From: Narcine bancroftii
Taxonomy: Eukaryota
Direction: 5' to 3'
Length of the DNA: 64,000 bases
NCBI RefSeq assembly: GCF_036971445.1
Contig: NC_091473.1
Coordinates: 57,598,001 to 57,662,000 of the forward strand
Positions within the stretch are counted from its first letter, which is position 1. The number at the start of each line of letters is the position of its first letter. The position numbers and the translations under genes were made by a program. Shown in pieces: positions 12,291 through 58,947 of this stretch. A model generated the notes under the pieces. That model saw only the letters and a program-made list of their open reading frames with translations, was not told the origin of the DNA and ran no database searches.

Positions 12291-12533
12291 TGAATCTACA
12301 TATGAAAGAACAGGTGCTTCAAATCTGATGTGTCTCAATTGCTTTACATTGTCGGGTCTGAAGACTCTTGGGTTTCATTTTTAAATGGCTGGAAAGGGAA
12401 GTCAGTTTGCCAAAAATTCACTTGTTACCAGAAGTATTTGAAGGCTGTTATTGCCTTCAAATGAGATTTTCATATCAAAGTATTGGGCAGATGAGAAGAT
12501 GAATGAGCTGCCAGAGTTTGTTGCCTTTTGTCT

Positions 12534-13776
12534 AACAAGGTCGGGTCAGATAGAGCAATGAGCTCTCTGAACCCTTCTCCCTTAACAATGGCGTGAAGCA
12601 AGGCTGTTTTCTCGCACCAACCCTCTTTTCAATCTTCTTCAGCATGATGCTGAACCAAGCCATGAAAGACCCCAACAATGAAGACGCTGTTTACATCCGG
12701 TACCGCACGGATGGCAGTCTCTTCAACCTGAGGCGCCTGCAAGCTCACACCAAGACACAAGAGCAACTTGTCCGTGAACTACTCTTTGCAGACGATGCCG
12801 CTTTAGTTGCCCAGTCAGAGCCAGCTCTTCAGCGCTTGACGTCCTGCTTTGCGGAAACTGCCAAAATGTTTGGCCTGGAAGTCAGCCTGAAGAAAACTGA
12901 GGTCCTCCATCAGCCAGCTCCCCACCATGACTACCAGCCCCCCCACATCTCCATCGGGCACACAAAACTCAAAACGGTCAACCAGTTTACCTATCTCGGC
13001 TGCACCATTTCATCAGATGCAAGGATCGACAATGAGATAGACAACAGACTCGCCAAGGCAAATAGCGCCTTTGGAAGACTACACAAAAGAGTCTGGAAAA
13101 ACAACCAACTGAAAAACCTCACAAAGATAAGCGTATACAGAGCCGTTGTCATACCCACACTCCTGTTCGGCTCCGAATCATGGGTCCTCTACCGGCACCA
13201 CCTACGCCTCCTAGAACGCTTCCACCAGCGTTGTCTCCGCTCCATCCTCAACATCCATTGGAGCGCTTTCATCCCTAACGTCGAAGTACTCGAGATGGCA
13301 GAGGTCGACAGCATCGAGTCCACGCTGCTGAAGATCCAGCTGCGCTGGATGGGTCACGTCTCCAGAATGGAGGACCATCGCCTTCCCAAGATCGTGTTAT
13401 ATGGTGAGCTCTCCACTGGCCACCGTGACAGAGGTGCACCAAAGAAAAGGTACAAGGACTGCCTAAAGAAATCTCTTGGTGCCTGCCACATTGACCACCG
13501 GCAGTGGGCTGATAACGCCTCAAACCGTGCATCTTGGCGCCTCACAGTTTGGCGGGCAGCAACCTCCTTTGAAGAAGACCGCAGAGCCCACCTCACTGAC
13601 AAAAGGCAAAGGAGGAAAAACCCAACACCCAACCCCAACCAACCAATTTTCCCCTGCAACCGCTGCAACCGTGTCTGCCTGTCCCGCATCGGACTTGTCA
13701 GCCACAAACGAGCCTGCAGCTGACGTGGACTTTTTACCCCCTCCATAAATCTTCGTCCGCGAAGCCAAGCCAAAGA
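12534..13776 (+). mobile_element. RTE (BovB-like) LINE, 5'-truncated, copy 2
   Basis: Contains the uninterrupted 376-codon ORF 12593-13723 and the family 3' end cgaagccaagccaaag. Confidence 0.97.
12593..13723 (+). pseudogene. RTE reverse transcriptase, C-terminal half (open but 5'-truncated)
   Basis: GVKQGC.LAPTLF, LLFADDAAL, FTYLG, and a terminal CxxC-x12-H-x3-C zinc-finger-like motif. Confidence 0.93.
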
Positions 13777-15704
13777 TATGCCATAGATGGCTTTTCTGGA
13801 AACACCATTTCTCAAACCTGCTGATTAGGTGTCAAGCATTATAACAATCCCAATCTTTATATTGTTGCACCAAATCAATTGGGAATTTTGATCTGCCCAC
13901 TATTTGCACTCTGACAGCTGGCTGCCAAGCAGCTGAGCATGTGGAAGATGTAGGGTAGTGTCCAAAGGAGAACTGTATGCTGAACTCTTGGGGCTGTTTA
14001 ATTCTGTCCTGATGTGTTTCATTTCTGGGTTTCTTTAAAAAAAACAAACCAGTAAATGAAAAGTGATGAATTTCTATCTTGCGTAGCTCAGTCTCATCTG
14101 TTTTCAAGGATAAGACCTTTGCAGATTTTCCAAATTCACTTTGAGTTATTTAGTACCTTAGCTGAGTTGCACCCTGGCAGATTATAAACTAATTTTATTT
14201 ATGAGAAAGTTTTGTAGATGTTAATTTTCTTCTGATTTACCAACAGTCCTTACTGTTCCTTCCTTTGATTATTCATAGCTGATGTCTAGAATGCAATCAG
14301 GGTGGGCCTTTAACTTAAAATATTCAGCTATGTTTGAACCACTACAGCACAGTACAATGTACAGTTGAGATGTCATGACATTGTTTTTTGTATATAGTTT
14401 GACTCTTCATAAAGTGGTCGTAAATTAAGTTCTTCAAGGAGGTCCTATTCAAAGGTCTTTCCATTCAATGTTGAGCATATACTTTAGGCATATGCCACGC
14501 ACCACCAGTCTCTTCTAGATTTTAGTATTCATAGTTAAGTAATTGATCTATATCTTCACAACAGGAATTAAAGAATTTGGATTCTTACATTGATGGAAAA
14601 GATAGCACATCCACAAAAATAAGAATGGTTAATGAAAAATGTGTGTACTTTCTACATATGACATTGGTGTTACTTTAATTATATCCAGAAACATTGAGAA
14701 AGTGAACATCAGTGGGGCTTTTACAAGAAAGGCAGACATGCAAACCTGGAATTCCATGCATGAAATACTTTGCACATGTTGGAAGTTTGTGGTTTCAAAT
14801 GAAATTACTCATTAAAAACTGTTCCTTGCCACTATCTGAAGTGTGTTTGGTTCTTCAACTGAAAATATTTACTTCAGGATTGCTTTTGACACAAGGGAGT
14901 GTTGGATAAACAAGTTATTGTCATAAACAGGAGGTGGAAATGGAAAAACATGCACTAGTCTGTACACTATTTATTCAGGACAGTGTGAATTTGCTTTCTT
15001 CCTTTTACTCCTTCAAATAAACATCGTTTTTTCTCAGTTTTTTTCTTTGAAAATGTGGCTTGGGAGAGAAATGGAAAATGTAATTTAGAGTGTTTGGAAT
15101 AAAAATCATGTTTATTATGAGTATGGGGAAAATAATACTGTAAACCAGAAAGCATTGATTCAATATGTGCCTTCTTTCAAAGAAGAACAAGCTCTCAAAT
15201 CCTTTTGTAAAATAAAAGGTAGCTTCTTTTGAAAGATGGTTCAGTTTGTGCTGCTCCATCTCTAGATGGTGACCCATCCCAAATAGAATGAGCTATTTTT
15301 AATTTTGGATTATTAAAAAGGCTGAAAATGTTTTCTAATTTGCATATCTACCAGTTAATTTCCCAAAAGACATAGCTATATTTACTACATTGAGATAAAA
15401 ATGTAATTTGAGTAGAGAAATAGTATTTTTATGCCTAGATCTGGTGTTCATTCCCTATACCTGATTAATTTTTTGATGATTGCTTGCTTGGATACCTCTG
15501 GAGTGGTTGCAATGAATCCTATTAGTGTCCTAAAAAAATTGGACTAGGTTTCCTTCCCTGCAGGACATTGATTCTTAAATGCAATAGTATATTTCCTTTT
15601 GATTTTTAATTCTTAGACGACTGGGTTCAATTACTTTTCTCTATACTGTCATACTTTCCATTTCTTTGGGATAAAGTGGCAGTCAATTTGCATGAGGTGA
15701 CATT

Positions 15705-16753: not shown

Positions 16754-18618
16754 TCTTTCTTTGGCTTGGCTTCGCGGATGAAGATTTATGGAGGGGTAAA
16801 TGTCCATGTCAGCTGCAGGCTCGTTTGTGGCTGACAAGTCCGATGCGGGACAGGCAGACACGGTTGCAGGGGAAAATTTGTTGGTTGGGGTTGGGTGTTG
16901 GGTTTTTCCTCCTTTGCCTTTTGTCAGTGAGGTGGGCTCTGCGGTCTTCTTCAAAGGAGGTTGCTGCCCACCGAACTGTGAGGCGCCAAGATGCACGGTT
17001 CGAGGCGATATCAGCTCACTGGCGGTGGTCAATGTGGCAGATACCAAGAGATTTCTTTAGGCAGTCTTGTACCTCTTCTTTGGTGCACCTCTGTCACGGT
17101 AGCCAGTGGAGAACTCGTCATATAACACGATCTTGGGAAGGCGATGGTCCTCCATTCTGGAGACGTGACCTACCCAGCGCAGTTGGATCTTCAACAGCGT
17201 GGATTCGATGCTGTCGGCCTCTGCCATCTCGAGTACTTCGATGTTAGGGATGAAGTCGCACCAATGAATGTTGAGGATGGAGCGGAGACAACGCTGGTGG
17301 AAGTGTTCTAGGAGCCGTAGATGATGCCGGTAGAGGACCCATGATTCGGAGCCGAACAGGAGTGTGGGTATGACAATGGCTCTGTATACACTTATCTTTG
17401 TGAGGTTTTTCAGTTGGTTGTTTTTCCAGACTCTTTTGTGTAGTCTTCCAAAGGTGCTATTTGCCTTGGTGAGTCTGTTGTCTATCTCGTTGTCGATCCT
17501 TGCATCTGATGAAATGGTGCAGCCGAGATAGATAAACTGGTTGACCGTTTTGAGTTTTGTGTGCCCGATGGAGATATGGGGGGGCTGGTAGTCATGGTGG
17601 GGAGCTGGCTGATGGAGGACCTCAGTCTTCTTCAGGCTGACTTCCAGGCCAAACATTTTGGCAGTTTCCGCAAAACAGGACGTCAAGCGCTGAAGAGCTG
17701 GCTCTGAATGGGCAACTAAAGCGGCATCGACTGCAAAGAGTAGTTCACGGACAAGTTGCTCTTGTGTCTTGGTGTGAGCTTGCAGGCGCCTCAGACTGAA
17801 GAGAATGCTATCCGTGCAGTACCGGATGTAAACAGTGTCTTCATTGTTGAGGTCTTTCATGGCTTGGTTCAGCATCATGCTGAAGAAGATTGAAAAGAGG
17901 GTTGGTGCGAGAACGCAGCCTTGCTTCACGCCATTGTTAATGGAGAAGGGTTCAGAGAGCTCATTGCTGTATCTGACCCGACCTTGTTGGTTTTCGTGCA
18001 GTTGGATAACCATGTTGAGGAACTTTGGGGGGCATCCGAGGCACTCTAGTATTTGCCAAAGCCCTTTCCTGCTCACAGTGTCGAAGGCTTTGGTGAGGTC
18101 AACAAAGGTGATGTAGAGTCCTTTGTTTTGTTCTCTGCACTTTTCTTGGAGCTGTCTGAGGGCAAAAGACCATGTCAGTAGTTCCTCTGTTTGCGCGAAA
18201 GCCGCACTGTGATTCTGGGAGAATATTCTCGGCGACACTAGGTATTATTCTATTTAGGAGAATCCTAGCGAAGATTTTGCCTGCAATGGAGAGCAGCGTG
18301 ATTCCCCTGTAGTTTGAGCAGTCTGATTTCTCGCCTTTGTTTTTGTACAGGGTGATGATGATGGCATCACGAAGGTCCTGAGGCAGTTTTCCTTGGTCCC
18401 AGCAAAGCTTGAAAAACTCATGCAGTTTGGCATGCAGAGTTTTGCCGCCAGCCTTCCAGACCTCTGGGGGGATTCCATCCATACCTGCTGCTTTGCCACT
18501 TTTCAGTTGTTCAATTGCCTTTTATGTCTCTTCCTGGGTGAGGACCTCATCCAGCTCTAGCCTTAGGGGCTGTTGAGGGAGCTGGAGCAGGGCGGAATCT
18601 TGGACTGAGCGGTTGGCA
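16754..18618 (-). mobile_element. RTE (BovB-like) LINE, 5'-truncated, copy 3 (longest, 1.87 kb)
   Basis: ORFs 18099-18482 (GMDGIPPEVWK...NYRGITLLSIAGKIFARI...PESQCGFR) and 17057-18238 cover the RT domain with frameshifts. Catalytic FADD is mutated to FAVD. 3' tail at 16754. Confidence 0.97.
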
Positions 18619-22056: not shown

Positions 22057-23073
22057 CTACTCTTTGCAGACGATGCCACTTTAGTTGCCCATTCAGAGCC
22101 AACTCTTCAGTGCTTGACGTCCTGTTTTGCGGAAACTGCCAAAATGTTTGGCCTGGAAGTCAGCCTGAAGAAAACTGAGGTCCTCCATCAGCCAGCTCCC
22201 CACCATGACTACCAGTCCTCCCACATCTCCATCGGGCACACAAAACTCAAGACGGTCAACCAGTTTACCTATATCGGCTGCACCATTTCATCGGATGCAA
22301 GGATCGACAATGAGATAGACAACAGACTCGCCAAGGCAAATAGCGCCTTTGGAAGACTACACAAAAGAGTCTGGAAAAACAACCAACTGAAAAACCTCAC
22401 AAAGATTAGTGTATACAGAGCTGTTGTCATACCCACACTCCTGTTTGGCTCCGAATCATCGGTCCTCTACCGGCATCACCTACGGCTCCTAGAACGCTTC
22501 CACCAGCGTTGTCTCCGCTCCATCCTCAACATTCATTGGAGTGACTTCATCTCCAACATTGAAGTACTCGAGATGGCAGAGGCTGACAGCATCGAATCCA
22601 CGCTGCTGAAGATCCAACTGCGCTGGGTAGGTCACGTCTCCAGAATGGAGGACCATCGCCTTCCCAAGATCGTGTTATATGGTGAGCTCTCCACTGGCCA
22701 CCTTGACAGAGGTGCACCAAAGAAGAGGTACAAGGACTGCCTAAAGAAATCTCTTGGTGCCTGCCACATTGACCACCGCCAGTGGGCTGATATCGCCTCA
22801 AACCATGCATCTTGGCGCCTCACAGTTCGGCGGGCAGCAACCTCCTTTGAAGAAGACCGCAGAGCCCACCTCACTTACAAAAGACAAAGGAGGAAACACA
22901 CAACACCCAACCCCAACCAACCAATATTCCCTTGCAATCGCTGCAACTGTGTCTGCCTGTCCTGCATCGGACTTGTCAGCCACAAACGAGCCTGCAGCTG
23001 ACGTGGACATTACCCCTCCATAAATCTTCGTCCGCGAAGCCAAGTCAAAGAAGAAAAGAAAGAAAAAGAAGAA

Positions 23074-23115: not shown

Positions 23116-23176
23116 TTTTATAAACTGTGTTCTAATACATTAATAGTCAGAGACTAGGCAGAGGGCAGGTTGCGAT

Positions 23177-23379
23177 TGTTGGGTGCTATCAGTTGCCCCA
23201 ATAATTACGGAGACAAGGACTGAGAGGAACAATAGGCTTTATTATATAAGAGACTGCTGGCCTGGGTCCAAGGCTAGGGAAAATGAGGAGAGGGAGAGGG
23301 GGCTCAACCTTAATGGCCTGGGTCACATAGTGGAGACCAGGGAAGAGCCAAGGACAGTACACACAGCCATATCACCACA
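23177..23379 (-). repeat. 3' LTR of Gypsy element
   Basis: About 90-93% identical by eye to 27405-27631, with a ~27-bp internal deletion. Confidence 0.93.
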
Positions 23380-23497
23380 TTCACCTCCTCTTTTTAAAAT
23401 AGAACACACCGGGAACACAGAGAACCGGGGGTAGCAAACAACAATAATGATAACATAATAACAATAAAGGTTCTCGGAAAACGGACGATCCCTTCGA

Positions 23498-26330
23498 CTA
23501 GAGGTTTAGTCGCACGGGTGACCTCCTCCTTCTGTCGGACAACCGAGGGGACAGCGTGTCCATGCAGTGCTCCTCTGGAGAGGGGGCAGTCGGGGGAGAG
23601 CCCACAGCAGAAACTGTCAGGGTCGGGGGACTCCTGGGGTGATGGGGTGGTCCACTGCCTTGTGGGGGGTAGATTCCGGTGGCGAGGTAGGTGACTCGGA
23701 CTCCAAGGTCAAGCTCTGGTGCAGCATGATCGGATCTGCGGTGTGGTCGGTGGCCGGCAAGGCAGTTTCGGGGACTCTGGCCCTCACCAGGTCTCATATT
23801 GGCACAGTGTCCTCGTGCCCATCCGGGTACCTCACAATGAGTATTGTGGGTTGGCAAGTATGAGGTGCACCGCTTCAACCATTGGGTCCGTCTTGCGGCC
23901 CCTGACATGCTTCCGAAGCAGAACTGGCCCTGGGCTTGCCAGCAGGGAGGTATGGATGAATCATTCACCGATCTCCAAGGGAAACCAAAGAGGCGTTCAT
24001 ACATGTTGGTGTTAGTAACGGTGCATAGCAAGGACCGGATGGCGTGGAGACCCTCGAGCAGAACATCCTGCCAGCGGAACACTGGTATGTTTTTGGACCT
24101 TAGGGCTAGGAGCACCGCCTTCCAGATGGTGGTGTTCTCCATTTTGACTTGGTCATTATCCCTGGGGTTATAGCTGGTGGTCCTGCTGGTGGCTATGCCT
24201 CTGGCCAGGAAGTACTGTTGCAGCTCCTCACTCATGAACTAGGCCCCCCGGTCACTATGAATATAGGTGGGGCACCGGAACAGGGTGAAGATGCTGCACA
24301 GTGCCTTGATAACCATTGCAAAATCATATCTGTCAGGGGGTAGCAAAGGGGAACCTGGAGAGTTCGTCCACCACTGTCAGGAAGTAGGCGTTTCTATTTG
24401 AGATTGGGAGGGGGCCCTTGAAATCAACACTGAATCGTTCAGGGGTATGTGACCTTAATGAGGTGTGCCTTTTCTGGTCGGTAGAACTGTAGCTTACACT
24501 CAGCGCAGATCTGGCATCGTCTGGTCGTGGACCGGACGTCCTCTGTGGAGTACGGGAGGTTCCAAGTCTTAGCAAATTGGTACAACCTCGTGACTCCGGG
24601 ATGGCACAGATTATCATGCAGGGTCTGGAGACGGTCAAGATGCGCGCTGGCGCACATCCCTCAGAATACGGCATCTGGGGGGGTCATTGTGTTTACCCGA
24701 CCGATACAAGATATCATAATTATAGGTGGACAACTCAATCCTCCACCTGAAAATCTTGTCATTTTTGATCTTACCCCACTGTTTAGCACTGAACATGAAG
24801 GCCACTGCCCTCTGGTATGTCAGCAGGGTAAACCTCTTACCAGCCAGGTAGTGCCACCAGTGGTGCACCACCTCAATGATTGTTTGTGCCTCTTCTCAAT
24901 AGAGGAGTGCCAAAGTTTGGAACCATGCGGGGAAAAAAATGCTACCGGCCTGCCTGCCTGGTTTAATGTGGTGGCCAGTGTGAAGTCGGAGGCATCGCTC
25001 CCCACCTGGAAGGGGATGGATTCATCCATGGCATGCATTGTGGGCTTACGCTGATAATGAGAAGATTGTGGACTTAATCAGGGGGTGGGCTTTATCGGCG
25101 TAATTGGGCACCCATTGTGTGTAGTAGGAAAACAGCCCCAGGCACGTCTTCAGCACCTTCAGGGTGTTTGGGACTGGGAGCTCCATAAGTGGTCACATGC
25201 GGTCAGGGTCCAGGGCAATGATACCATGTGCCATGACGCATTTGAGAAGAGCCAGGCAATGCATTTTGAACACACACTTGTCCTTATTGTACATCAAGTT
25301 GAGGGACTTGGCCGTACGCAAGAACTTGGAGAGATTAGCGTCGTGGTCCTGCTGGTCGTGGCCGCAGATGGTGACATTGTCAAAATATGGGAACATTGCC
25401 ATCAGCTTGTGCTCCTACACCATCCAGTCCATAACCCTCTGAAAAGCAGAGACAGCATTAATAACACCAAACGGCACCCGCAGGAAGTGGAATAGTTTTC
25501 CGTCAGCCTCGAATCCAGTGTAGATTCGATCACTCGGACAGAGGGGAAATTGATGGTAAGCCAACTTAAGGTCAATGGTCATAAAAACTCTGTATTACAT
25601 GACCTTATTGACCAAGTCGGCAATCCGAGGTAGCGGGTACACTTCCAACTGGGTGAAGCGGTTGATGGTTTGACTGTAGTCGATTACCATCTGGGGCTTG
25701 CCCGCCTCTCTGACCACAAGGACCTGCGCCCTCCAGGGACTGGTACTGGTGGCTATGATCCCCTCTGCCAGGAGTCGCTGAACCTCAGCCCGGATGAACT
25801 GCATATCCTCCATGCTATAGAGCCTACTCTTGGTGGTGATCGGTTTGCAGTTCGGAGTGAGGTTCGCAAATAGTGACGGAGGGGCCACCCATAAAGTGGT
25901 GAGACCACAGGGTGATTCTGGAGACCAGGTGCTTGGTTGGGGGTGGGAATCTGAGAGCTGGGGGTTATGGATGGTCAACGGCGGTTGGGGGCCTTCAAAC
26001 GCCATTGTCACACTCCTGAGCTGACTCTGAATGTCGAAGCCTAGGAGGATCGGCACACAGAGCTGGGGCATAATCAACAGTACAAAGTCATTGTAACATT
26101 CCCCCCCACCGACAGAGACTCCACACAATACCCCCGGATGCACGTCTGTTGGTCCTTTGCTGCCATCGATACCAAACCAGACATCGGCCTGACAGGAAGG
26201 GAGAGTCTGCCGACCTCGTCGGGGTGAACAAAATTTTCAGTACTACTGCTATCGAAAAGGCACTTTGTCTTATGCCCATTCACCTCGATCTGCATCATGG
26301 AGTTTGAGATCGGGTGAGGGCTGGCTTGGT
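23498..26330 (-). pseudogene. pol: Gypsy pol (protease, RT, RNase H, integrase), frameshifted
   Basis: CLFDSSSTENF (protease); STSPWRAQVLVV...VIDYSQTINRFTQLEVYPLPRI and PYFDNVTICG (RT); SDASDFTLA (RNase H); HDNLCHPG...CQIC, SVDFKGP, TTSYNPR (integrase). Confidence 0.92.
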
Positions 26331-26589
26331 TCAGCATTACCGATGCCAGGACAGGCATTTCTCCGTCGTCATCGTCTGTGGGGAGACCCGCCCAAGATGG
26401 CAACCTCTATGTTGACCATGCAGCACTCATTGGAGAAGGAGGAAGTGGAGTCGTGGTGGGCGGAAGTGACGTCATTGGCGCGGTAGGCCATGGTGTAGAG
26501 GTTTTGAGTGGTAGCCGATAAGATGGGGCCCCCCTCACCACACACGCAGTCTGCACCGGAAACTCCTCCGGCACACAGGCTGCACTACT

Positions 26590-27371
26590 CCTGGACAAAG
26601 GTCAGAACCTGCAGACCTTTTGGTAATGGCCCTTCTTCCCGCAGCCCGAGCATGTGGCTCTTCTCATGGGGAAGAGATGTCTCGCGTGCCTAGCCTGCCC
26701 GCAGAAGTTGCATCTCGATGATGCAGACTGCATTATCGCAGCCGCAGTCTGGTCAGTAACCCCCGTCGCTGGTCCCAGGACGACGGCCCTTGTGGCAGAA
26801 CGTACATGGGAGGTCCACTTCTGCCTGCGATCGACACTGCATAGTGCTGGGCCGAGTCTAAAGTCCTGATCAGATTGATTGTCTTTTTAAATGGGAGTTG
26901 GTCCTCCCCGAGGAGTCGTTTTCAGATATAATCCGACCTCAATCCTGACACGCAAGCGTCTCGGATCAGATCTTCAACGCACTGGGTCAATGATATTGTG
27001 GCCATGGGGTTCCCCAGACAGTCTTTTTCCAGTGTGACCAAGGATCGGAAAAAGTCTTCAGCAGACTCACCAGGCTGTTGTTTTCGGGATGCCAGCAGAT
27101 AACAGAAGTAGACCTCGTTCACTTTCGGCTTGTACAACGCCCGCAGCTCAGTCATCGCCTCATTGTGGGTCGCACTGCTTTGGATGGCCAGGAAGGCCCT
27201 CTGGCCGACTCGTGCCTGTAGGATCTTCATCTTCTTTTCATCGGAGTTGACCACCTCAGCAGCGGCGTCGAGGAAATTATTAAAACTGTTCACCCACTGT
27301 TCGAAGAGTACCAATGCACCCAGGACTTGGGGGTCTTCCTCTAGCCGTTCAGGATGCAGCAACTTCTCCAT
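26590..27371 (-). pseudogene. gag: Gypsy gag, frameshifted
   Basis: ORF 26922-27371 starts 34 nt after the 5' LTR (MEKLLHPERLEEDP...RKQQPGESAEDF). Tandem zinc knuckles CNFCGQARH and CSGCGKKGHYQKVC at ~26605-26712. Confidence 0.88.
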
Positions 27372-27404
27372 TACCGGAGACCTTCAAATTCTTGTGTAAT
27401 AAAT

Positions 27405-27631
27405 TGTTGGGCGCTATCAGTTGCCTCAATAATTACGGAGACAAAGACTGAGGGAAACAATAGGCTTTATTATATAAGAGACTGCTGACCCGGGTCCAAG
27501 GCTAGGTAAAATGAGGAGAGGGAGAGGGGGCTCGACCTTTATGGCCTGGGTCACATGAGACCAGGGAGGAGTCAAGAACAGGATGTCACCAGGAGGGCAG
27601 GCCAGCCAGTACACACAACCATATCACCACA
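27405..27631 (-). repeat. 5' LTR of Gypsy element (227 bp)
   Basis: TGTGGTGA...CCAACA on the - strand, with TATA-like cataaa and AATAAA. Confidence 0.93.
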
Positions 27632-28016
27632 GCAATATCAATTAGACTTCAAGATCTTAAAATGTCCTCTCGCTCTGACTGTAGTTAACAATCACCCCGG
27701 TCCAAAGTGCCTCACTGCCACCTAAGGCCAGGATTCCTGGCATCTACTGGACCTCAGATGTTAAGAAGAGTCCTCCAGCTTGCAGTGAAACCGCCACCTA
27801 ATTCACAGTCTCTTCATAGTCCTTAAGCCTTCAGCACCATCTGCCCCCATGCCCCTCAATCCAGACTGATGCTTCCATCATGGATCCCTGAACCAGAACA
27901 CAGCCTGCCACTTTGGATGCCTCGGAATACCTCCTCCAAAGTGTTAGAGGAGTCAAAGACATATTGCCAATGTTTTGGGCCTGAGTCCTTCTTCAAGGAA
28001 TTATTACTTGCTTTAA

Positions 28017-38460: not shown

Positions 38461-38789
38461 TTTATTGACATGAGTACAATGGGAACATTCCTTTTTCATG
38501 CAAACTAGCTAGTCAACTGGCGCATAGCTGGCATTAAAAACACAGAACAAAAGTGCAGAATTTGAAGATTATTTAGAACAAAACAAAGGCAACGTTATTC
38601 TACAGGTGAAGTTTAAGGCCCTGATCAAGCCATACTCTGATATTCAATTGTGATTTCACTCATAGTTTTTGGAATCCTCACAGAACCTGGGGATTATAGC
38701 TATTGGGAAGAGAACATGGGAGGTGACCTGAAATCTTTTCAAATTTTGGGAATGGTCATGATTGTGAAGATGTTGGTATGTTTTTAAGA

Positions 38790-40287
38790 TGACAGCAATG
38801 TTCCCATACCTTGATAATGTCACCATCTGCAGGACCACGACGTGAACCTCACAAAGTTCTTACGTACGGCCAAGTCTCTCAACTTGACATACAATAAGGA
38901 CAAGTGCGAGTTCAACACGGACCGCCTGGCCCTTCTTGGATGCATTGTGGCACATGGTGTCATTGCCCCGGACCTCTTATGGAGCTCCCAGTCCCAAACA
39001 CCCTAAAAGTGCTGAGGAGGTGCCTGGGGCTGTTTTCCTATTATGCACAATGGGTGCCCAATTACACTGATAAGGCCCACCCCCTGATTATGTTCACAAA
39101 CTTTCCATTATCGGCGGAAGCCCAAGTTGCATTATATCAGATCCGAGGGGACATCGCAAAGGCCACGATGCATGTCGTGGACGAGTCCCTCCCCTTTCAG
39201 GTGGAGAGCGATGCCTCTGACTTCGCACTGGCCGCCACACTTAACCAGGCAGGCAGGCCAGTAGCATTTTTCTCCTGCACCCTGCACGGGCCCGAGGTAC
39301 GGCACTCCTCAGTCAAGAAGGAGACATAAGTAATTATTGAGCCAATGCACCACTGGCGATATTACCTGGCCGGTAAACGGATTACCCTGCTGACAGACCA
39401 GAGGGTCATAGCCTTCATGTTTAACACTAAACAGCGGGGTAGAATCAAAAATGACAAGATTTTTAGGTGGAGTATTGTGCTCTCCACCTATAATTATGAC
39501 ATTTTGTACCAACCAGATAAACTCAATGAACCCACAGATGCCCTACCCTGGAGAACGTGTGCCAGTGCACATCTCGATCGCCTCCAGGCCATTCATGACA
39601 GTCTGTGCCATCCCAGAGTCATAAGGTTGTACCACTTTATCAAGACTCGGAACCTTCCGTACTCCGTTGAGGATTTCAGATCTGCACTGAATGTAAGCCA
39701 CAGTTCTACCAACCCATCAAGGCACATCCTATTAAGGCCACACACCCTTTTGAACAGCATAGTGTTGATTTCAAGGGCCCCCTACCCACCGCAAATAGGA
39801 ATCCCTATTTCCTGATGGTGATGGACAAGTTCTTCAGGTTCCCCTTTGCTATTCCATGTTCCGGATATGACCTCAGCGACAGTAATCAAGGCGCTGCGCA
39901 GCATCTTCACCCTGTTTGGGTACCCCGATTATATCCACAGTGATTGGGGGTCCTCCTTCATGAGTGAAGAACTGTGACAGTATTCCCTGACCAAAAGGCA
40001 TAGCCACCAGCAGGACCACCAGCAATAATTCCAGGGGTAATGGCCAGAGGAAAAGGGAGAACACCACCGTCTAGAAGGCGGTGCTCCTGGCCATTAGGTC
40101 CAAAAACATGCCAATGTCCCGCTGGCAGGAAGTTTTGCCCAAAGCGCTCCACGCCATCCGATCACTCCTGTGCACCACAACTAACACTACCCCGCAAGAA
40201 TGCTTGTTTGCTTTCCCTAGGTGGTCAATGAATGGTTCCTCCATTCCTCCTTGGTTGGCAACTGCAGGGCCAGTCCTGCCACAGAAG
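38790..40287 (+). mobile_element. pol: Gypsy pol fragment (RT C-terminus, RNase H, integrase), same lineage as 23177-27631, no LTRs
   Basis: FPYLDNVTIC at 38801-38830; ORFs 38904-39329 (ESDASDFALAATLNQAGRPVAFFS), 39345-39815 and 40081-40308 are collinear with the - strand element. Confidence 0.93.
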
Positions 40288-41304
40288 CATAGAAACATAG
40301 AAACATAGAAGATAGGAGCAGGAGTAGGTCATACGACCCTTCGAGCCTGCTCCGCCATTCAACGAGATCATGGCTGATCTTAAAGTTCAATACCCCATCC
40401 CCGCCTTCTCTCCGTAACCTTTAATACCCTTATACTGAAGAAATATATCTAATTCCCTCTTAAATATATTTAATGAACCTGCCTCTACTGCCTTCTGTGG
40501 CAATGAATTCCACAGATTCACCACCCTCTGGGTAAAGAAATTCCTCCTCATCTCGGTCCTAAATGGTTTGCCTATTATCCTCAAACCATGGCCCCGGGTT
40601 CTGGATTTTCCCATCCTTGGAAACATCCCATCTGCATTCATTCTGTCCAGTCCTGCCAGAAGTTTATATGTCTCTATGAGATCCCCTCTCAATCTTCTAA
40701 ACTCCAGTGAGTACAATCCCAATTTGCGCAATCTTTCCTCATAAGTCATTCCTGCCATTCCAGGTATCAGCCTGGTGAATCGCCTCTGCACTCCCTCCAT
40801 TGCAAGAACATCCTTCCTTAGATAAGGTGACCAAAACTGCACACAATACTCCAGGTGGGGTCTCACCAAGGCCCTGTACAGCTGCAGTAAGGTATCCTTG
40901 TTCCTATACTCAAACCCTCTTGATATGAAGGCCAACATACCATTTGCCTTTTTAACCACCTGCTGTACCTGCATACTCGCCTTCAGAGACTGGTGTACAA
41001 GTATCTCTAGGTCTCTCTGCACTTCCCCATCTCTTAATCTATTGCCATTCAAATAGTAATCTGCCCTCCGGTTTGTATTACCAAAGTGGATAACCTCACA
41101 TTTATCCACATTGTAGTGCATTTGCCATGTATCTGCCCAGTCCCTCAATTTATCCAAATCACACTGGAGCTTCCTGACCCCCCTCTTCCGTGCACACAAC
41201 CCCTCCTAGCTTAGTGTCATCTGCAAATTTGGAGATATTACATCCAATCCCCTCATCCAGATCATTAATGTAAATTGTGAACAGCTGGGGTCCCAGTACA
41301 GATC
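40288..41304 (-). mobile_element. CR1 LINE, young, 5'-truncated
   Basis: 270-codon open ORF 40387-41199 (RALVRPHLEYCVQFWSPYLRKD...FFTQRVVNLWNSLP); KFADDT at ~41213-41230; (TTCTATGT)n tail at 40288-40310. Confidence 0.97.
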
Positions 41305-43718: not shown

Positions 43719-44164
43719 TCTTCTTCTTTGGCTTGGCTTCGCGGACAAAGATTAATGGAGGGGTAATGTCCATGTCAGCTGCAGGCTCGTTTGTGGCTGA
43801 CAAATCCGATGCGGGACAGGCAGGCACGGTTGCAGTGGTTGCAAGGGAAAATTGGTTGGTTGGGGTTGGGTGTTGGGTTTTTCCTCCTTTGTCTTTTGTC
43901 AGTGAGGTGGGCTCTGCGGTCTTCTTCAAAGGAGGTTGCTGCCCGCCGAACTGTGAGGCGCCAAGATGCACGGTTTGAGGCGATATCAGCCCACTGGTGG
44001 TGGTCAATGTGGCAGGCACCAAGAGATTTTTTTAGGCAGTCCTTGTACCTCTTCTTTGGTGCACCTCTGTCTCGGTGGCCAGTGGAGAGCTCGCCATATA
44101 ACACGATCTTGGGAAGGCAATGGTCCTCCATTCTGGAGACATGACCTACCCAGCGCATTGGATC
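43719..44164 (-). mobile_element. RTE (BovB-like) LINE 3' fragment, copy 5
   Basis: ORF 43775-44158 RWVGHVSRMEDH...HKRACS; (GAA)n tail at 43719. Confidence 0.96.
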
Positions 44165-45547: not shown

Positions 45548-47475
45548 ACAACTCTACTTCCTCAGGTGTTTGCAGAGGTTTGGTGTGTTGTTGGAAAACT
45601 TGGCAAATTTCTACAAGTGTGTCGTGTGCTTACCAGCTGCATCAGGGTGTCAGGCCCTGATGTAGTGCATGGAAGGGTTCTGAAAATCTGTGCCATCGAA
45701 CTAGCTGGAGTGTTCAGATATATCTCTGCTCCAGTCAGAGGTTTCCACCTGCTTCAAAAGGGTATCAATCACACAGAGCCCAAGAAGAGCAGAGTGAGCT
45801 GTCTCAATGAATGTTTGCCCAGTAGCACTCACATCTATTTTGATGAAATGCTTTGAGAGGTTGGTCAAGGCCAGAATTAATTCATACCTACTGTAAGTAA
45901 ATATCTGGACCCACTGCAATTGCCCTACCTTCACAAACCTCCACAGCAGATGCAATATCACTGGGTCTCCACTTAGCTCTGGATCATCTTGACAACAGCA
46001 TATATCTGGCTACTCTTCATCATCTCAGCCTTCAACACCATCAATCATTCCCTCAGACCTGGTCAACAAGCTCTTTGACTTCCATATCGGAAGACCACAG
46101 TCAGTACAAATCGGAAACAACCTCTCCTCCTCACTGATAATCAACGCAGGCGCACCTTAAGGTGTGATTAGCCCACTGATCTACTAACTCTACTCTCAAA
46201 ACTGTGTGACCAGGCACAATTCAAATGCCATCTACAAATTTCCTGATGACACCACGGTCGTCAGCAGAATCACAGATGGCAATGAGGAAGGATACAGAAG
46301 GATACAGAAGGCAGTTGTATCAGCTAGTTGAGTGGTGTCACAACAAGCACTCAATGTTAACACAACCAAAGACCTGATTGTGGACTTCATGAGGAAATTG
46401 GGAGAACACAAGCCAGTCATCATCGAGGGGTCACTGGTAGAGAGGATCAAGAACTTCAATTTCCTGGGTGTCAATATCTCTGAAGATCTCTCCTGGGGCC
46501 TCCCAAAGAAGGCATCCTTGAGATGTTTGAGGAGATTTTGTATGTTACCATTATCACTTGAAAATTTCTACGTGTATCATGAGAGCATTCTGTCTGGTTG
46601 CATCACTATCTGGTATGGAGATGCTAATGTACAGGACAGGAAAAAACTACAAAGAGTTGTGAACAGTGCCATTACTGGTATCAATCTTCACTCCATCGAG
46701 GACATCTACAAGAGGCAGTTTAAGAAAGCATCCTCTATCCTCAAGGACTCCTACCACCCAGGCCATGCCCTCGTCCTACTGCTACCATTGGGAAGAAGGT
46801 ACAGGAGCCTAACGATCAGCACCCAGTAGCACAAGGACAGCTTCTTCCCCTCTGTCATCAGATTTCTGAAAGGACAATGCATCGCAGCTGCTCCTCACAT
46901 TCTCTTATTTTCCTGCACTCTTTATATATATTTTTGAAATGTCATTTATAGCAATAACTGCACGGTAATGCTGCCACAACACAATGACAATAAATGTTCA
47001 CGACAATAAAGTCTGATTCTGATTTCGGGACACCCATACCTCTAAACAGAAAGCCCTGCAAGAGGTAATGGACGCAGCCAAGTTCATCACAGACAGAACT
47101 TTACCTACCATTGAGGCCACCCCAGAACAGCATCTGCAGCAGCAGAAGTCATTAAAGCAAGGATCAATGTAACCCAGGTCATGTTCTGTTCTCACTGCTG
47201 CCATCAGGAAAGACATAGAGGCGCAAAAAGACTCCTACCTCCAGGTTCCGGAATGCTACCCCTCAAACATCAGACTCCTAAACAACAGACTCATTCAGAG
47301 ACCTATTTGAAGTCTCTTACTTGATTCATCATTCATTGATTTGCACAACAGTTTTACTTTTTTGTACTTTTTTTCTTGAGTACTGTTTAAATACTAGTAA
47401 TTAGAAATTCTGCATGACCTACAGGAACAACAATCTCAGGGCTGCATGTCATATATCTACTCTGACAATAAATTT
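45548..47475 (+). mobile_element. Rex1/Babar 3' fragment (host), split into 45548-45642 and 47026-47475 by a second Rex1 copy
   Basis: Both pieces are collinear with the - strand copy near 50030-50600 (ctctacttcctcagg.gtttgcagaggtttgg ... gggacacc.atacc). Confidence 0.65.
45643..47025 (+). mobile_element. Rex1/Babar LINE, nested insert
   Basis: SGPDVV.GRVLKICA.ELAGVF; YKFPDDTTV; ORF 46332-46829 (TKDLIVDF...FNFLGVNISEDLSW...ESILSGCITIWYG...HPGH); tail aataaagtctgattctgatt. Confidence 0.9.
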
Positions 47476-48125
47476 CAATTGTGAACAAAGCCAGAATTGC
47501 AGTTACACACACTCGTTTGTCATAGTTGTGTGGTACTAAAATATGTTGCAGCAGATTCTCAATTATCTATCCATGCTCATTCCATGTATCTCCGCTTAAA
47601 ATGCAACTGCCTTTGTCTTGGCAACAAAAGTGCTGTTAAATGGGGTCAGATACTTTTGAAATGTTGAGGGTGCTTTCTTCTACCATACACTTGGCAATCC
47701 CTCACTCAGAGGGTGGTTGGAGTCTGGAACAAAACCCCCTCCTCACTGAAGTCCACATGTTCTACATCAACTACTTGCGGTACTTGTGCACATGGGATTT
47801 AAAATTAAATTGAACATTGTTGTTTCAAATAGAACCTATGTGCCCGTTAATGCTTTGTCCAAAGTACCCTTCTAGGCTTATGTTTTTAAAATGTGTTCTC
47901 CTTGGACTGGAAAAAGTGATTTGCTTCTGTTTTTATCAGTCCAATCTATGTAGACTGTTCAGTGGTTGCTTTCAAATATTTTCCTACTGCTGGCACTTTT
48001 GCTATGCATGTGTTTCTTTTCCAAGTGAATGGCATCTACTCCTGAATGAGGAAGAGGACTTCTTGATTGTTTTCACAATTTCTTCTGGATCATCATTGAC
48101 ACAGAACATTGAGATTGAATGAAAG

Positions 48126-48965
48126 CATTAATCTTCAGTCTGATGCTCATTAATCTTCAGTCTGATGCTCATTAATCTTCAGTCTGATGCTCATTAATCT
48201 TCAGTCTGATGCTCATTAATCTTCAGTCTGATGCTCATTAATCTTCAGTCTGATGCTCATTAATCTTCAGTCTGATGCTCATTAATCTTCAGTCTGATGC
48301 TCATTAATCTTCAGTCTGATGCTCATTAATCTTCAGTCTGATGCTCATTAATCTTCAGTCTGATGCTCATTAATCTTTAGTCTGATGCTCACCAATCTTC
48401 AGTCTGATGCTCACCAATCTTCAGTCTGATGCTCATTAATCTTCAGTCTGATGCTCAATAATCTTCAGTCTGATGCTCATTAATCTTCAGTCTGATGCTC
48501 ATTAATCTTCAGTCTGATGCTCATTAATCTTCAGTCTGATGCTGATTAATCTTCAGTCTGATGCTCATTAATCTTCAGTCTGATGCTCATTAATCTTCAG
48601 TCTGATGCTCATTAATCTTCAGTCTGATGCTCATTAATCTTCGGTCTGATGCTCACCAATCTTCGGTCTGATGCTCACCAATCTTCGGTCTGATGCTCAT
48701 TAATCTTCGGTCTGATGCTCAATAATCTTCGGTCTGATGCTCACTAATCTTCGGTCTGATGCTCACTAATCTTCAGTCTGATGCTCATTAATCTTCAGTC
48801 TGATGCTCACCAATCTTCAGTCTGATGCTCATTAATCTTCAGTCTGATGCTCATTAATCTTCAGTCTGATGCTCATTAATCTTCAGTCTGATGTTCATTA
48901 ATCTTCAGTCTGATGCTCATTAATCTTCAGTCTGATGCTCATTAACCTTCAGTTTGATGCTCATT
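48126..48965. repeat. Minisatellite: 38 full copies of 22-bp CATTAATCTTCAGTCTGATGCT
   Basis: Units start at 48126+22n with no indels. No spacers, so not a CRISPR array. No ORF of 60 aa or more. Confidence 0.98.
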
Positions 48966-49184
48966 TGTCTTTGGATTACTAAGTGCTGGAAGACGAGCAC
49001 ATTTCACTGTGATCTATAGATGTATTGGGAGGGAAATTGGCAAGGTTGCTTTAGTTGAAATTTGAAGATGTTTCATGACCAGAGCCTATACACTATGAAA
49101 TGTGTCATTAAAAAGAAAAGGCAGAACTTTATCTGGCATCTTTTGTAAATTCCAAAGAAATTTGCAATCAACAAAACTAGGTTA

Positions 49185-55430: not shown

Positions 55431-55644
55431 TGTTGCGAGAGGTGCAGTGAATAAAGGACAACAGAAGTTGTCTGTGAGCTGAACCAACAGAACCGTTTAA
55501 TGGAATCTTCGCAGGAGTTTAAATATTTACATTTGGCGCACTATCACAATCACCCGACCTCTGAAGTCACGCGACCACCAGGAACTCCTGATCTGCGGGA
55601 GTCCACAACTACGGACACCGGTTTGAGTGGTGCGATTCACCACA
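55431..55644 (-). repeat. 3' LTR of CsRn1-like element
   Basis: Direct repeat of 58693-58947 with substitutions and deletions. Confidence 0.85.
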
Positions 55645-56341
55645 TAACACCCCTACCCTCCCCAAGAACTGGAGTTCAGAGGTGACACTTCAGTCTCACC
55701 TATATGGCTAGAATGGGCCAGCGGATACCTCCTGTGCCAAGACATGCCACCTGTACTGACCGGCTGATCTAGGTCCACATGTGTTGGATTAAGGTGTTCT
55801 TCCAAAACAGTTTCTTACCTGCCGCCAATGTCTATAATAAGCGTGGAGCCTTCATTCCGTACCACCTTGAAAGGACCTTCATATGACTATTGCTATGGGG
55901 TCCTGTGCGCATCCCTATGCAGGAATACATAAAGTCAGTCCTTGAGTTCAGGCAGAATATATGAAGTCGTAGACCCATGCGTGGGTTGCCGGGCTAGGCA
56001 TCAGTGTACCCACTTTCTCCTTTAAGTGTCTGAGTTCTGAGCTGTGAAATTCTTGGAGAGAAATCCCCTGAGACCGTTAGGGGTCTCTATAAACCAATTC
56101 TGCGGAGGACGTAGCTAGATCTTCCTTTGATGCAGTACGGGTACCTAAAAGTACCCAAAGCAGTTCATCTAACCAATCTGGTCCCTTAAGATGTGCCATG
56201 AGAGCCATTTTTATTTGACGGTGAAAACATTCCACTAAGCTGTTAGACTAGAGATGATAGGCCACCAACCAATGCAGCTGCGTGCCCAGCAACTGCAATT
56301 GTGGACCATAATATGGACGTAAACTGAGCTCCTCTGTCAGA

Positions 56342-56586
56342 TGTATATTTTTGATTTTTTTTTTTCCCCCTGAACCCATGCTCTCTGTCTTCATTCGCAG
56401 ACCCTAAATTCTACAGGAAGGAGTTAATGGAGTGAACTGGGATTCACTGGTAGGGTATTATAACCCTGGTTTCCCGCTAAACCCAGAACCCTTCTGAAGA
56501 CGACTGTGAGACCCTACCCTTAATTATAAGCTAATAAAAGTGTTTGTTCTCCCTCCTGTCATGAGAACTTTTATTCGCCCTTCACA
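56342..56586 (+). mobile_element. Foreign LTR-like segment (245 bp) embedded in the CsRn1-like pol
   Basis: TG...CA limits, tattataa at ~56456 and AATAAA at 56533; unrelated to the host LTRs; no TSD. Confidence 0.5.
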
Positions 56587-58679
56587 TTGATGAGCTGCTC
56601 CAGGATCCCACCTACCACAGTGCCTGAAGCATCCACCGTCAGAACTGTACAGTAGCTATTGCAAGCGCTCTTTTTGCAGGTTCAAATGCGGCCGCGCCCT
56701 CGTCATCCCATGTCAGTTCTTTGGGATGTCCAGTTAAGACTTTGAAAAGAGGATGCATAACTTTGGCTGAAGCTGGAACCAAACGATGGTAAAGGTTAAT
56801 CTTGTCAACAAACTCTTGCAGGCTTTTAATGATGGAGGGTCTTGGAAATTTGAAAATAGCCTCGACCTTGGAACTGCTCCATGCTGACTAATGCGATCCC
56901 AAGGAAATCGATTGATGTGAGGCCAAACTGGTATTTGGCCAGATTGATCACTAACCCATGGTCATCTAGCCGCTGACATAGTTGACGGAGATGGGCCCAG
57001 TGTTGCTGCGAGTGGCTGGTGACAAGGATGTCATCCAAATAAACGAATACAAAATCCAGGCCCAGGGAAGATGGAGCAAGATCAGGCGTTGAAATGTCTG
57101 GGCCACGCTTTTTAAACCAAAGGGTATATGGAGGAATTCAAATAGCCTAAACGGGGTATTCAAGGCAGTCTTAGGAATGTCATCCGAGTGAACTGGGTTG
57201 TGATGGTATCCGCGCACCAGGTCAATTTTGGAGAAAATCTTAGCGCCATGAAGAATTGCAAAGAAATCCTGTATATGGGGAACTGGGTAGCGATCTGCCA
57301 CAGTGATGTCGTTCAGATGCCAATAGTCCCCACAAGGTCTCCACTCTCCAGACAACTTAGGTACCACATGCAGCAGTGATGTCCAAGGGCTGTCAGAGCA
57401 GCGAACAATCCCCATTTCCTCCATGTGTCGGAATTAGTCTTTAACCAATTGCAATTTATCCAGAGACAGCCTGTGCACTCGAACATGCGGGGGACGTCCA
57501 TGAGATGCTGTACTCCAAGTTTTGGTTGGGCTGTCGAGAACTGCGGAGTAATAACGCTGGGCAATTCCACTAGGATTCTGGCATATTCATTGTCTGAGAG
57601 CATCACCGAGTTCAGGCGAGATGCAGGCAATTCTGCAGGGTTCAAGGCGAGGGACTCGAAAGCCTTTGCATTAACTAGGCAGTGACCTTTGAGATCTACT
57701 AGAAAGGTGTGTGCTCACAAAAAATCAGCTCTTAGGAGTGGCTGTGATACATCAGTAATGGTGAAGGACAAACTGAAATTGAGTGGAATTGTTCGTGACC
57801 CGTATGCCCGGATGCTGCTGTTGTTGGTGGTCATGAGGGAAGGGTGCTTCTTTCTTAAATGTTTGTCTGGCTGGAGGAGGGAAACACACTAACCTCCACT
57901 CCAGTGTCGACCAAGAACCAGTGGTCTGAGTGTTGATCCCAGAGGAAAAGGAGGTTGTTCTTGTGGCTGGCCATCGCGGTCACTACCAATGGCCAGCCTT
58001 AGCGTTTCCCGGATGCGTGCAAGAGGGACAGCAGCAGCGGTTTGCAGCTCCCCATCTCTGATGGTAATAGCACTATTGTTCTGTCTGTGCTGTGTCTGGT
58101 CGAGTCTGATGCCACCCTGCTATTGGGAGTGGCAGAGTTCGTGCCCTTTGCCGAGGTACCCCTACGCGCCTAACTGAAAGTCTACTATGCTGCTTAGCAC
58201 GCCACAACTCATCAGCACGGGCTGCTAAGCGACAGGGGTCGTTAAAGTATTTATCTGCAAGCAGCAGACTGATGTCTTCTGGCATTTGCTTGAGGAAAAG
58301 TTGCTCAAAAAGCATGGGCACCAGCATTTTGTTCAATAGTTCAGAAGGAGTGTAGTTTCCTAGGCCATCCATAGGGAGACATCGTGCTGCATTTTTGTGT
58401 CGGGAAAGGCAAAAAATATATGAGCGGGACTTTGCTGACTTCATACCTGTTGTTAGCTGGAGGCTGGCGTAAGAAATCGACAATATGTCCTGCGGTGTCT
58501 TGGTCCAGTGATGCATGACATAGTAGTATTTAATTGCGTCAGCGGTAATCTGGTGCGGATAGAACTGGGCCTTGGTCTGCTCGAATCAGACCTGTGGTTG
58601 TGAGGTCCAAAGTACCGGAAGTTTGAGCACAATGATGTTCTGCATGTCCATGGTGAGGTCCAAAATGTCATTTGGACCA

Positions 58680-58691
58680 TCGGGGTCACCA
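58680..58691 (-). promoter_or_regulatory. Primer-binding site complementary to the tRNA-Trp 3' end
   Basis: TGGTGACCCCGA lies 1 nt downstream of the 5' LTR; vertebrate tRNA-Trp ends ...UCGGGGUCACCA. Confidence 0.88.
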
Positions 58692-58692
58692 A

Positions 58693-58947
58693 TGTAGCAA
58701 GTGGTGCATGGAATAAAGTACAGCAGAAGTTGTCTGTGAGCTGAACCAACAGAACTGATTAATGCAATCTTCACAGGAGTTTAAATAATTACAGTTGGCT
58801 GTAATTACACTGTCACAATCACCCAACCTCTGAAGCCACGCACTCCCCAGAGTTCTTTGTGCCCCCCGACCACCAGGAACTCTTGATCCTGTGGGGGCCC
58901 GCGACTAAGGACGCCGGTTTGATAATGGAGTGGCGTGGTTCGCCACA
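58693..58947 (-). repeat. 5' LTR of CsRn1-like element
   Basis: TGTGGCG...CTACA on the - strand, immediately followed by the PBS. Confidence 0.85.

Follow-up and report, generated by a model that had tools for sequence, protein, structure and literature searches.

The YxDD motif serves to call reverse transcriptases (RTs) active or dead, and the accessible text of PMC2148107 states in its Introduction that all RTs have three aspartates. Two decayed Gypsy copies in the 64,000-nt stretch of Narcine bancroftii DNA analysed here (the window) carry asparagine in place of the last aspartate of this motif, which raises the question of whether Asn is damage acquired by dead copies or was already present in the masters that transposed.

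Copy 1 reads tat ttt gac aat at 25387-25376 on the minus strand, that is YFDN inside FPYFDNVTICG, and copy 2 reads tac ctt gat aat at 38807-38818 on the plus strand, that is YLDN inside FPYLDNVTIC, so that the two independent Asn copies reported in a preliminary description of this DNA are both found as described. Using the stop-free RT stretch of a related genomic copy (L007) as query, we found that YLDN aligns column for column with the YLDD of the Ty3 RT (PDB 4OL8, E 2.5e-27), and the Asn therefore sits at the second Asp of YxDD in RT motif C. The Phe is private to copy 1 (TTT in 1/61 genomic copies) and the family motif is therefore YLDN; of the lineage motif Y(L/F)DN proposed earlier, the Asn stands and the Phe does not.

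Copy 1 is a whole LTR retrotransposon of 4,455 bp (23177..27631, minus strand), delimited by TG...CA LTRs at both ends and by a 5-bp target-site duplication, ATTGC upstream (27632..27636) and ATCGC downstream (23172..23176), with one mismatch. The 5′ LTR (27405..27631) measures 227 bp and the 3′ LTR (23177..23379) 203 bp, the latter having two internal deletions relative to the former; the pair diverges by 7.3% over ~180 aligned nt. Between them, three-frame translation and Pfam RVT_1 matches on two fragments delineate a single gag-pol frame (23498..27371) encoding gag, CCHC, protease, RT, RNase H and integrase, followed by a polypurine tract (23384..23395), then TGAA and the 3′ LTR, a geometry found in other copies as well. 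Many stops and frameshifts interrupt this frame, the intact homologues of which are single ORFs of 1,150-1,450 aa. Copy 2 (38789..40255, plus strand, ends approximate) is a decayed, 5′-truncated pol fragment that begins a few codons ahead of the motif, retains the C-terminal half of RT, RNase H and integrase, and shows about 79-87% identity to copy 1 in matched blocks. Both copies are dead and neither can be active. The element has the TG...CA LTRs, short target duplication, polypurine tract and protease-RT-RNase H-integrase order of Ty3/Gypsy elements, with an RT closest to Ty3, and departs from them in the catalytic motif, which is YxDN in 6,083/6,145 genomic motifs; it is thus a Ty3/Gypsy member except for that motif. 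Its nearest named homologues, among the best 120 matches listed, are from rays and sharks.

The window holds further repeats. A putative CsRn1-like Gypsy remnant (55431-58799, minus strand) with a 107-bp terminal repeat pair, 88% identical, has the normal YLDD previously attributed to it, at 57041-57030 (minus strand). A young LINE family, which we take to be RTE-like, is present in five copies with 93-97% identity (~1850-2330, 12530-13780, 16760-18240, 22060-23060 and 43720-44160), one of them abutting the 3′ LTR of copy 1. Non-LTR retrotransposon fragments, presumably CR1/L2-like, lie at 40387-41205 (minus strand) and 46332-46829 (plus strand), and a 22-bp tandem array at ~47970-49100 comprises at least 39 overlapping registers with up to 98% identity. 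The segment 6908-8453 may be a DNA transposon or a foldback element; its inverted arms of ~280 bp, complementary at 94-98% over three blocks, enclose a core of 970 bp.

We searched the 3.33 Gb genome for the motif with its flanks fixed and the codon left free, and found an Asn codon (AAY) in 1,613 of 1,705 matches and an Asp codon (GAY) in 16; reversed-pattern controls returned 0. A looser pattern returned 6,083 YxDN and 62 YxDD motifs, with the reservation that these patterns demand Thr two residues after the site and would miss an Asp family that is more distant and differently flanked. This tabulation had been proposed in the preliminary description, with a YLDD consensus as the outcome that would speak against its claim, and it gave the opposite. 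The equivalent test on the first Asp of the motif, which to our knowledge no RT can lose, found it kept in 1,613/1,960 cases (82.3%), a retention lowered by CpG decay, against 94.6% for Asn, and Asn is therefore held at least as well as the first Asp.

The comparison of copies leads in the same direction. In a set of 61 (the first 60 Asn matches of the fixed-flank pattern plus copy 1), differences between copies at codon positions 1, 2 and 3 amount to 0.27, 0.20 and 0.45 (542 of 1,830 pairs, indel-free). The Tyr, Leu, Asp and Asn codons of the motif all vary silently, with Asn written as AAT in 54/61 copies and as AAC in 7/61; Asn has been kept through synonymous divergence between subfamilies. 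As judged from this codon pattern, the masters of the YLDN family were under selection, and RT residues are under purifying selection in Asn lineages. A separate origin of Asn in each dead copy, through G-to-A mutation after insertion, would take a single transition from GAY to AAY, of the kind that strikes the first Asp in its CpG context. We nevertheless give this explanation practically no weight, as the site is not CpG after GAT, yet Asn follows GAC and GAT alike, and as Asn is found in 94.6-99% of copies, the youngest included.

An LTR pair could be located in 32 of the 61 copies, with a median divergence of 10.2%, partial pairs included. We then took 20 more Asn copies so as to cover other subfamilies; three young YLDN insertions among them (L126-L128) differ by 1-2 mismatches between their 240-bp LTRs and are flanked by distinct 5-bp target duplications, and in one of the three the 1,433-codon frame is unbroken and all 12 checked motifs are present. 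Furthermore, four RefSeq loci of the coral Pocillopora encode intact 1,181-aa YIDN proteins that are 99.2-99.5% identical. We regard the Gypsy lineage with this YxDN RT as successful and recently mobile.

A passenger family could in principle spread with a crippled RT if it were copied in trans by the Asp-bearing RT of another element. D-to-N blocks transposition of Ty1 (PMC2148107, accessible part), a CsRn1-like YLDD element lies in the same window, and Asp families occur within the wider clade in other animals, all of which would suit such an arrangement. Asp, however, makes up 1% of the family motifs in this genome and is unclustered: on a DNA tree built without the motif codon, in which 44 of the 62 Asp copies were combined with 81 Asn copies, 33 changes are needed, compared with a shuffled mean of 36.4 (49/500 shuffles as low), and the Asp copies are spread inside many different Asn subfamilies. 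They are therefore one-off A-to-G mutants and not a helper subfamily. The sole Asp cluster among them consists of four broken YLDD copies (L140-L143, on G000 C29 and C89), nearly identical and lacking an LTR pair. Purifying selection on RT in Asn lineages would be unexpected for a passenger RT, and the elasmobranch-clade rows of the protein tree are Asn in 15/15 cases, so that we regard copying in trans as very improbable. As for the Asp cluster itself, three of the four copies lie within 1 Mb, and it is probably a segmental duplication or an assembly duplicate.

Our main reading, to which we assign a probability of roughly 80%, is that both copies in the window are dead representatives of a large YLDN family, the masters of which likely transposed with their own RT of two aspartates plus asparagine. 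The preponderance of Asn, the unclustered Asp copies and the young YLDN insertions bear out the earlier proposal that Asn was present in active masters, and activity of the Asn RT is probable in view of the selection and the young insertions taken together.

Homologues extend this picture well beyond rays. Two protein searches listed 269 matches, among which those with at least 35% identity comprise 150 DN, 64 DD and 5 other motifs (n = 219), and those below 35% are DD in 50/50 cases. Removal of short or unclear rows left 244 rows for a tree, in which a clade of 196 rows is set off with support 100 from 48 unnamed Gypsy rows. Its members span cnidarians, molluscs, tunicates, elasmobranchs, insects and nematodes, and 134/195 have Asn and 61 Asp, the early branches being mostly Asp. 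Named Asn members come from Hypanus, Mobula, Narcine, Scyliorhinus, Oculina, Xenia, Actinostola, Porites, Acropora, Pocillopora, Mytilus and Styela, and named Asp members from Cyamophila, Trichuris, Trichinella and Apostichopus. Two clade members are labelled as proteins of bacterial metagenome-assembled genomes (P0011 and P0040), probably through host contamination of metagenome bins.

The best 244-row tree requires at least 20 Asp/Asn changes (shuffled mean 52), of which strong branches force 9. In a maximum-likelihood tree of 60 rows, hand-picked to include Asp/Asn neighbours, 13 of the 14 changes required are forced, and Asn was monophyletic in 0/200 bootstraps. A single origin of Asn, which we considered, is ruled out by both trees. 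Among the Asn families, three nested clusters carry Asp uniformly (9/9, 8/8 and 5/5 members with the motif found), and reversions to Asp have therefore founded families; some of the single Asp rows may represent isolated mutants and not families. Within the clade, the residue has alternated repeatedly between Asp and Asn and is almost never anything else. Where the preliminary description pictured one lineage that had lost the Asp, we thus find toggling at this position across an animal-wide clade.

The remainder of the enzyme is retained. Conservation of the remaining RT aspartates and of the four acids of RNase H is 98-100% in Asn and Asp members, all catalytic-motif checks are passed by 39 of 50 full-length Asn proteins, and structure prediction gives an ordinary RT fold for an Asn-bearing homologue (pLDDT 90.2; Ty3 RT match E 8.8e-28). 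The clade as a whole differs from the outgroup at several positions: in the fingers motif WRAQ, Gln replaces Pro (100%, compared with Pro in 93% of the outgroup), in DYSxTIN, Arg gives way to Ser plus one inserted residue, Thr and Gly follow the catalytic motif, and RNase H has TDQ instead of TDH (98-100%, compared with His in 100% of the outgroup). These residues, chosen by their contrast with the outgroup, are a candidate permissive background. Our data do not show the compensation in RNase H that had been suggested for Asn; the four catalytic acids are intact and the change from TDH to TDQ is common to Asp and Asn members alike.

Among the sites listed, none switched with Asn in 9 independent pairs (median sign-test p 0.375-1). 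Thr at +2, tried as a co-switching residue on its raw counts (126/134 Asn and 38/61 Asp members), failed this independent-pairs test, and other candidates did likewise. Lys/Arg two residues before the first catalytic Asp occurs in 19/61 Asp and 0/132 Asn members; this is not significant on independent pairs and is kept as a lead.

The nearest laboratory counterpart is the D211N mutant of Ty1, for which the accessible text of PMC2148107 reports an RT that polymerises with a 223-fold lower kpol and prefers Mn2+, that has lost pyrophosphorolysis, that interacts genetically with RNase H, and that supports no transposition unless RNase H suppressors restore it to 5-10%; the facts on D211N given earlier for this locus agree with this source. 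The confinement of the site to Asp and Asn suggests that a single oxygen of the side chain is still required, with most of the metal binding done by the other two aspartates. In the mechanism that we propose, the two invariant aspartates would hold the metals, and the amide oxygen of Asn would take over from the third carboxylate, either binding the primer-activating metal more weakly or helping to position it, as in Ty1 D211N. The rebuilt clade-wide background (WRAQ, DYSxTIN, Thr at +2 and RNase H TDQ) would then render Asp and Asn nearly interchangeable.

Priming of the minus strand also appears unusual in this family. No TGG follows any of the CA-finishing LTR ends in the copies scanned, and no tRNA gene was found in the 64,000-nt window. 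Instead, the bases that follow the 5′ LTR are the reverse complement of an LTR segment that ends in AATAAA, 44-62 nt upstream. In copy 1 the predicted self-primer arm (27466..27479, minus strand; AATAAA at 27471-27466, preceded by an initiator-like CAGT) pairs at 12/14 positions with the primer-binding position (27403-27390, minus strand), which is likewise devoid of a TGG tRNA site. We scored the 22 of 61 copies in which our filter located both arms; pairs 1-14 are each present in 17-22 of them and pairs 15-16 in 7-8. At helix positions 7-14, which were not subject to selection by the filter, copies form 6.9/8 Watson-Crick pairs with their own LTR compared with 4.2 for shuffled partners (0/10,000; 22 copies), a significance inflated by the relatedness of copies within a subfamily. 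Both sides of the helix change between subfamilies (covariation), and a similar result was obtained in 25 copies. Young copies show perfect pairing over 14-16 nt from the second base after the LTR, within a long hairpin that has an inner R-U5 stem. Folding of the leader of copy 1 itself gave the predicted helix with a weak z of -1.13, as expected for a decayed copy. In contigs of two runs guessed to be RNA, the element was covered mostly at <95% likeness.

On the evidence of pairing, position and covariation, the family probably primes in the manner of Tf1, on its own RNA and without a tRNA. A piece of ~14-17 nt from the 5′ end of the element RNA, freed by RNase H, would prime the minus strand, with its 3′ end at the second base downstream of the LTR. 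The same helix may, alternatively or additionally, mask the 5′ polyadenylation signal. That it does so exclusively, with priming left to something else, is an unlikely possibility to which the helix lends some credit in covering AATAAA exactly and in being formable only at the 5′ LTR; pairing, however, begins at the second base past the LTR end in 22/22 scored copies, where the 3′ end of a primer must sit, CA-finishing LTR ends are never followed by TGG, and an initiator-like AGT or CAGT precedes the arm in many subfamilies. Masking and self-priming can moreover coexist.

Self-priming may bear on what Asn might be for. It is possible, although we lean against it, that Asn is selected, a slower or less excision-prone polymerase suiting the element through, for example, its balance with the RNase H cleavage that releases the self-primer, or less harm to the host. 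Asn prevails throughout the elasmobranch subclade and in most of the wider clade, Ty1 D211N lacks pyrophosphorolysis and shows genetic interaction with RNase H (PMC2148107, accessible part), and the clade combines RNase H TDQ with probable self-priming. Repeated, family-founding returns to Asp fit near-neutral toggling equally well, however, no residue among the sites listed changed in step with Asn in the independent pairs, and the priming mode was scored in the Asn families of the Narcine bancroftii genome only. A still more tentative idea, which we consider somewhat less likely again, is that this clade, an ancient one of animals, rebuilt its RT, that this made the third carboxylate optional, and that the rebuilding is tied to self-priming, with a re-tuned RNase H (TDQ) that must cut the primer balanced against a polymerase rate set by Asp or Asn. 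If so, and this we hold to be equally doubtful, the clade would be a natural version of the pair formed by Ty1 D211N and its RNase H suppressor.

Among described elements, the closest by markers is the Cigr-1 clade of Ty3/Gypsy, the founder of which comes from Ciona intestinalis and which also includes elements of molluscs and annelids (PMC2774666, PMC6238403 and PMC8556966, in their accessible parts); the accessible part of PMC3601003 adds nothing on the clade. Our elements resemble Cigr-1 as described in the accessible text of PMC2774666 in having two CCHC knuckles, an ILG protease motif and an integrase after RNase H, in lacking GPY/F, chromodomain and env, and in their distribution among marine invertebrates including a tunicate. 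Two CCHC arrays are present in the Gag of 56/69 full-length proteins, GP[YF] in the last 250 aa is found in 0/69, and no chromodomain or env Pfam domain is found in the best 120 matches listed; at 4.4-4.9 kb the elements leave no room for env. The protease motif is ILG in 57, LLG in 11, other in 11 and not found in 15 of 94 proteins. The protease flap differs, being MAS/MAT/LAS here (MATS in 16, MAST in 13 and MASS in 12 of 94, with TANG absent among the 25 listed variants) as opposed to TANG, of the GANG class, for Cigr-1 (PMC2774666, same portion), a marker defined by the one founder sequence. The marker set is also common to some Osvaldo-clade elements. No Cigr-1 sequence was found among the best 120 matches of our protein searches or in the text supplements of the Cigr-1 papers that were accessible, and the comparison is one of markers rather than of sequence; membership in Cigr-1 is accordingly unproven, the markers matching except for the flap and not being unique. 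Neither YxDN nor self-priming is mentioned for Cigr-1 in the accessible text of PMC2774666, PMC6238403 and PMC8556966.

With Tf1/Tf2, Tj1 and the Tf1/Sushi group, our family shares the absence of a tRNA site, a primer position complementary to its own LTR and an R-U5 stem (PMC4600332 and PMC6317226, accessible parts). It differs from the Tf1/Sushi chromoviruses in being devoid of a chromodomain and in belonging to a different, long-branched RT clade, and from Tf1 and Tj1 in its predicted arm of ~14 nt that includes AATAAA, cleavage and priming being predicted here. Probable self-priming outside the chromoviruses would add another origin of tRNA-free priming in animals.

With regard to the catalytic site, we found no description of a YxDN retrotransposon RT in the largely non-subscription literature searched; repeat libraries such as Repbase, Dfam and GyDB may contain YxDN elements unremarked. 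Because YxDN families have thousands of copies, some of them very young, it is probably a mistake to annotate YxDN enzymes of this clade as inactive. Elsewhere, working polymerases with a natural Asn at the second acidic position of palm motif C are known, with GDN in the mononegaviral L protein and ADN in birnavirus VP1; these are RNA-dependent RNA polymerases and not RTs, and they are fixed for Asn rather than toggling. Ty1 D211N has the same substitution at the same position, and polymerase activity survives it; the mutant does not transpose without suppressors (PMC2148107, accessible part, which also cites Ty3 carboxylate mutants as a further laboratory comparison), in contrast to the families described here, in which Asn is natural and copies number in the thousands. 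The role of the second Asp has so far been argued from such crippled laboratory mutants, and the natural Asp/Asn sister pairs of this clade provide matched enzymes, tested by evolution, on which that role can be studied.
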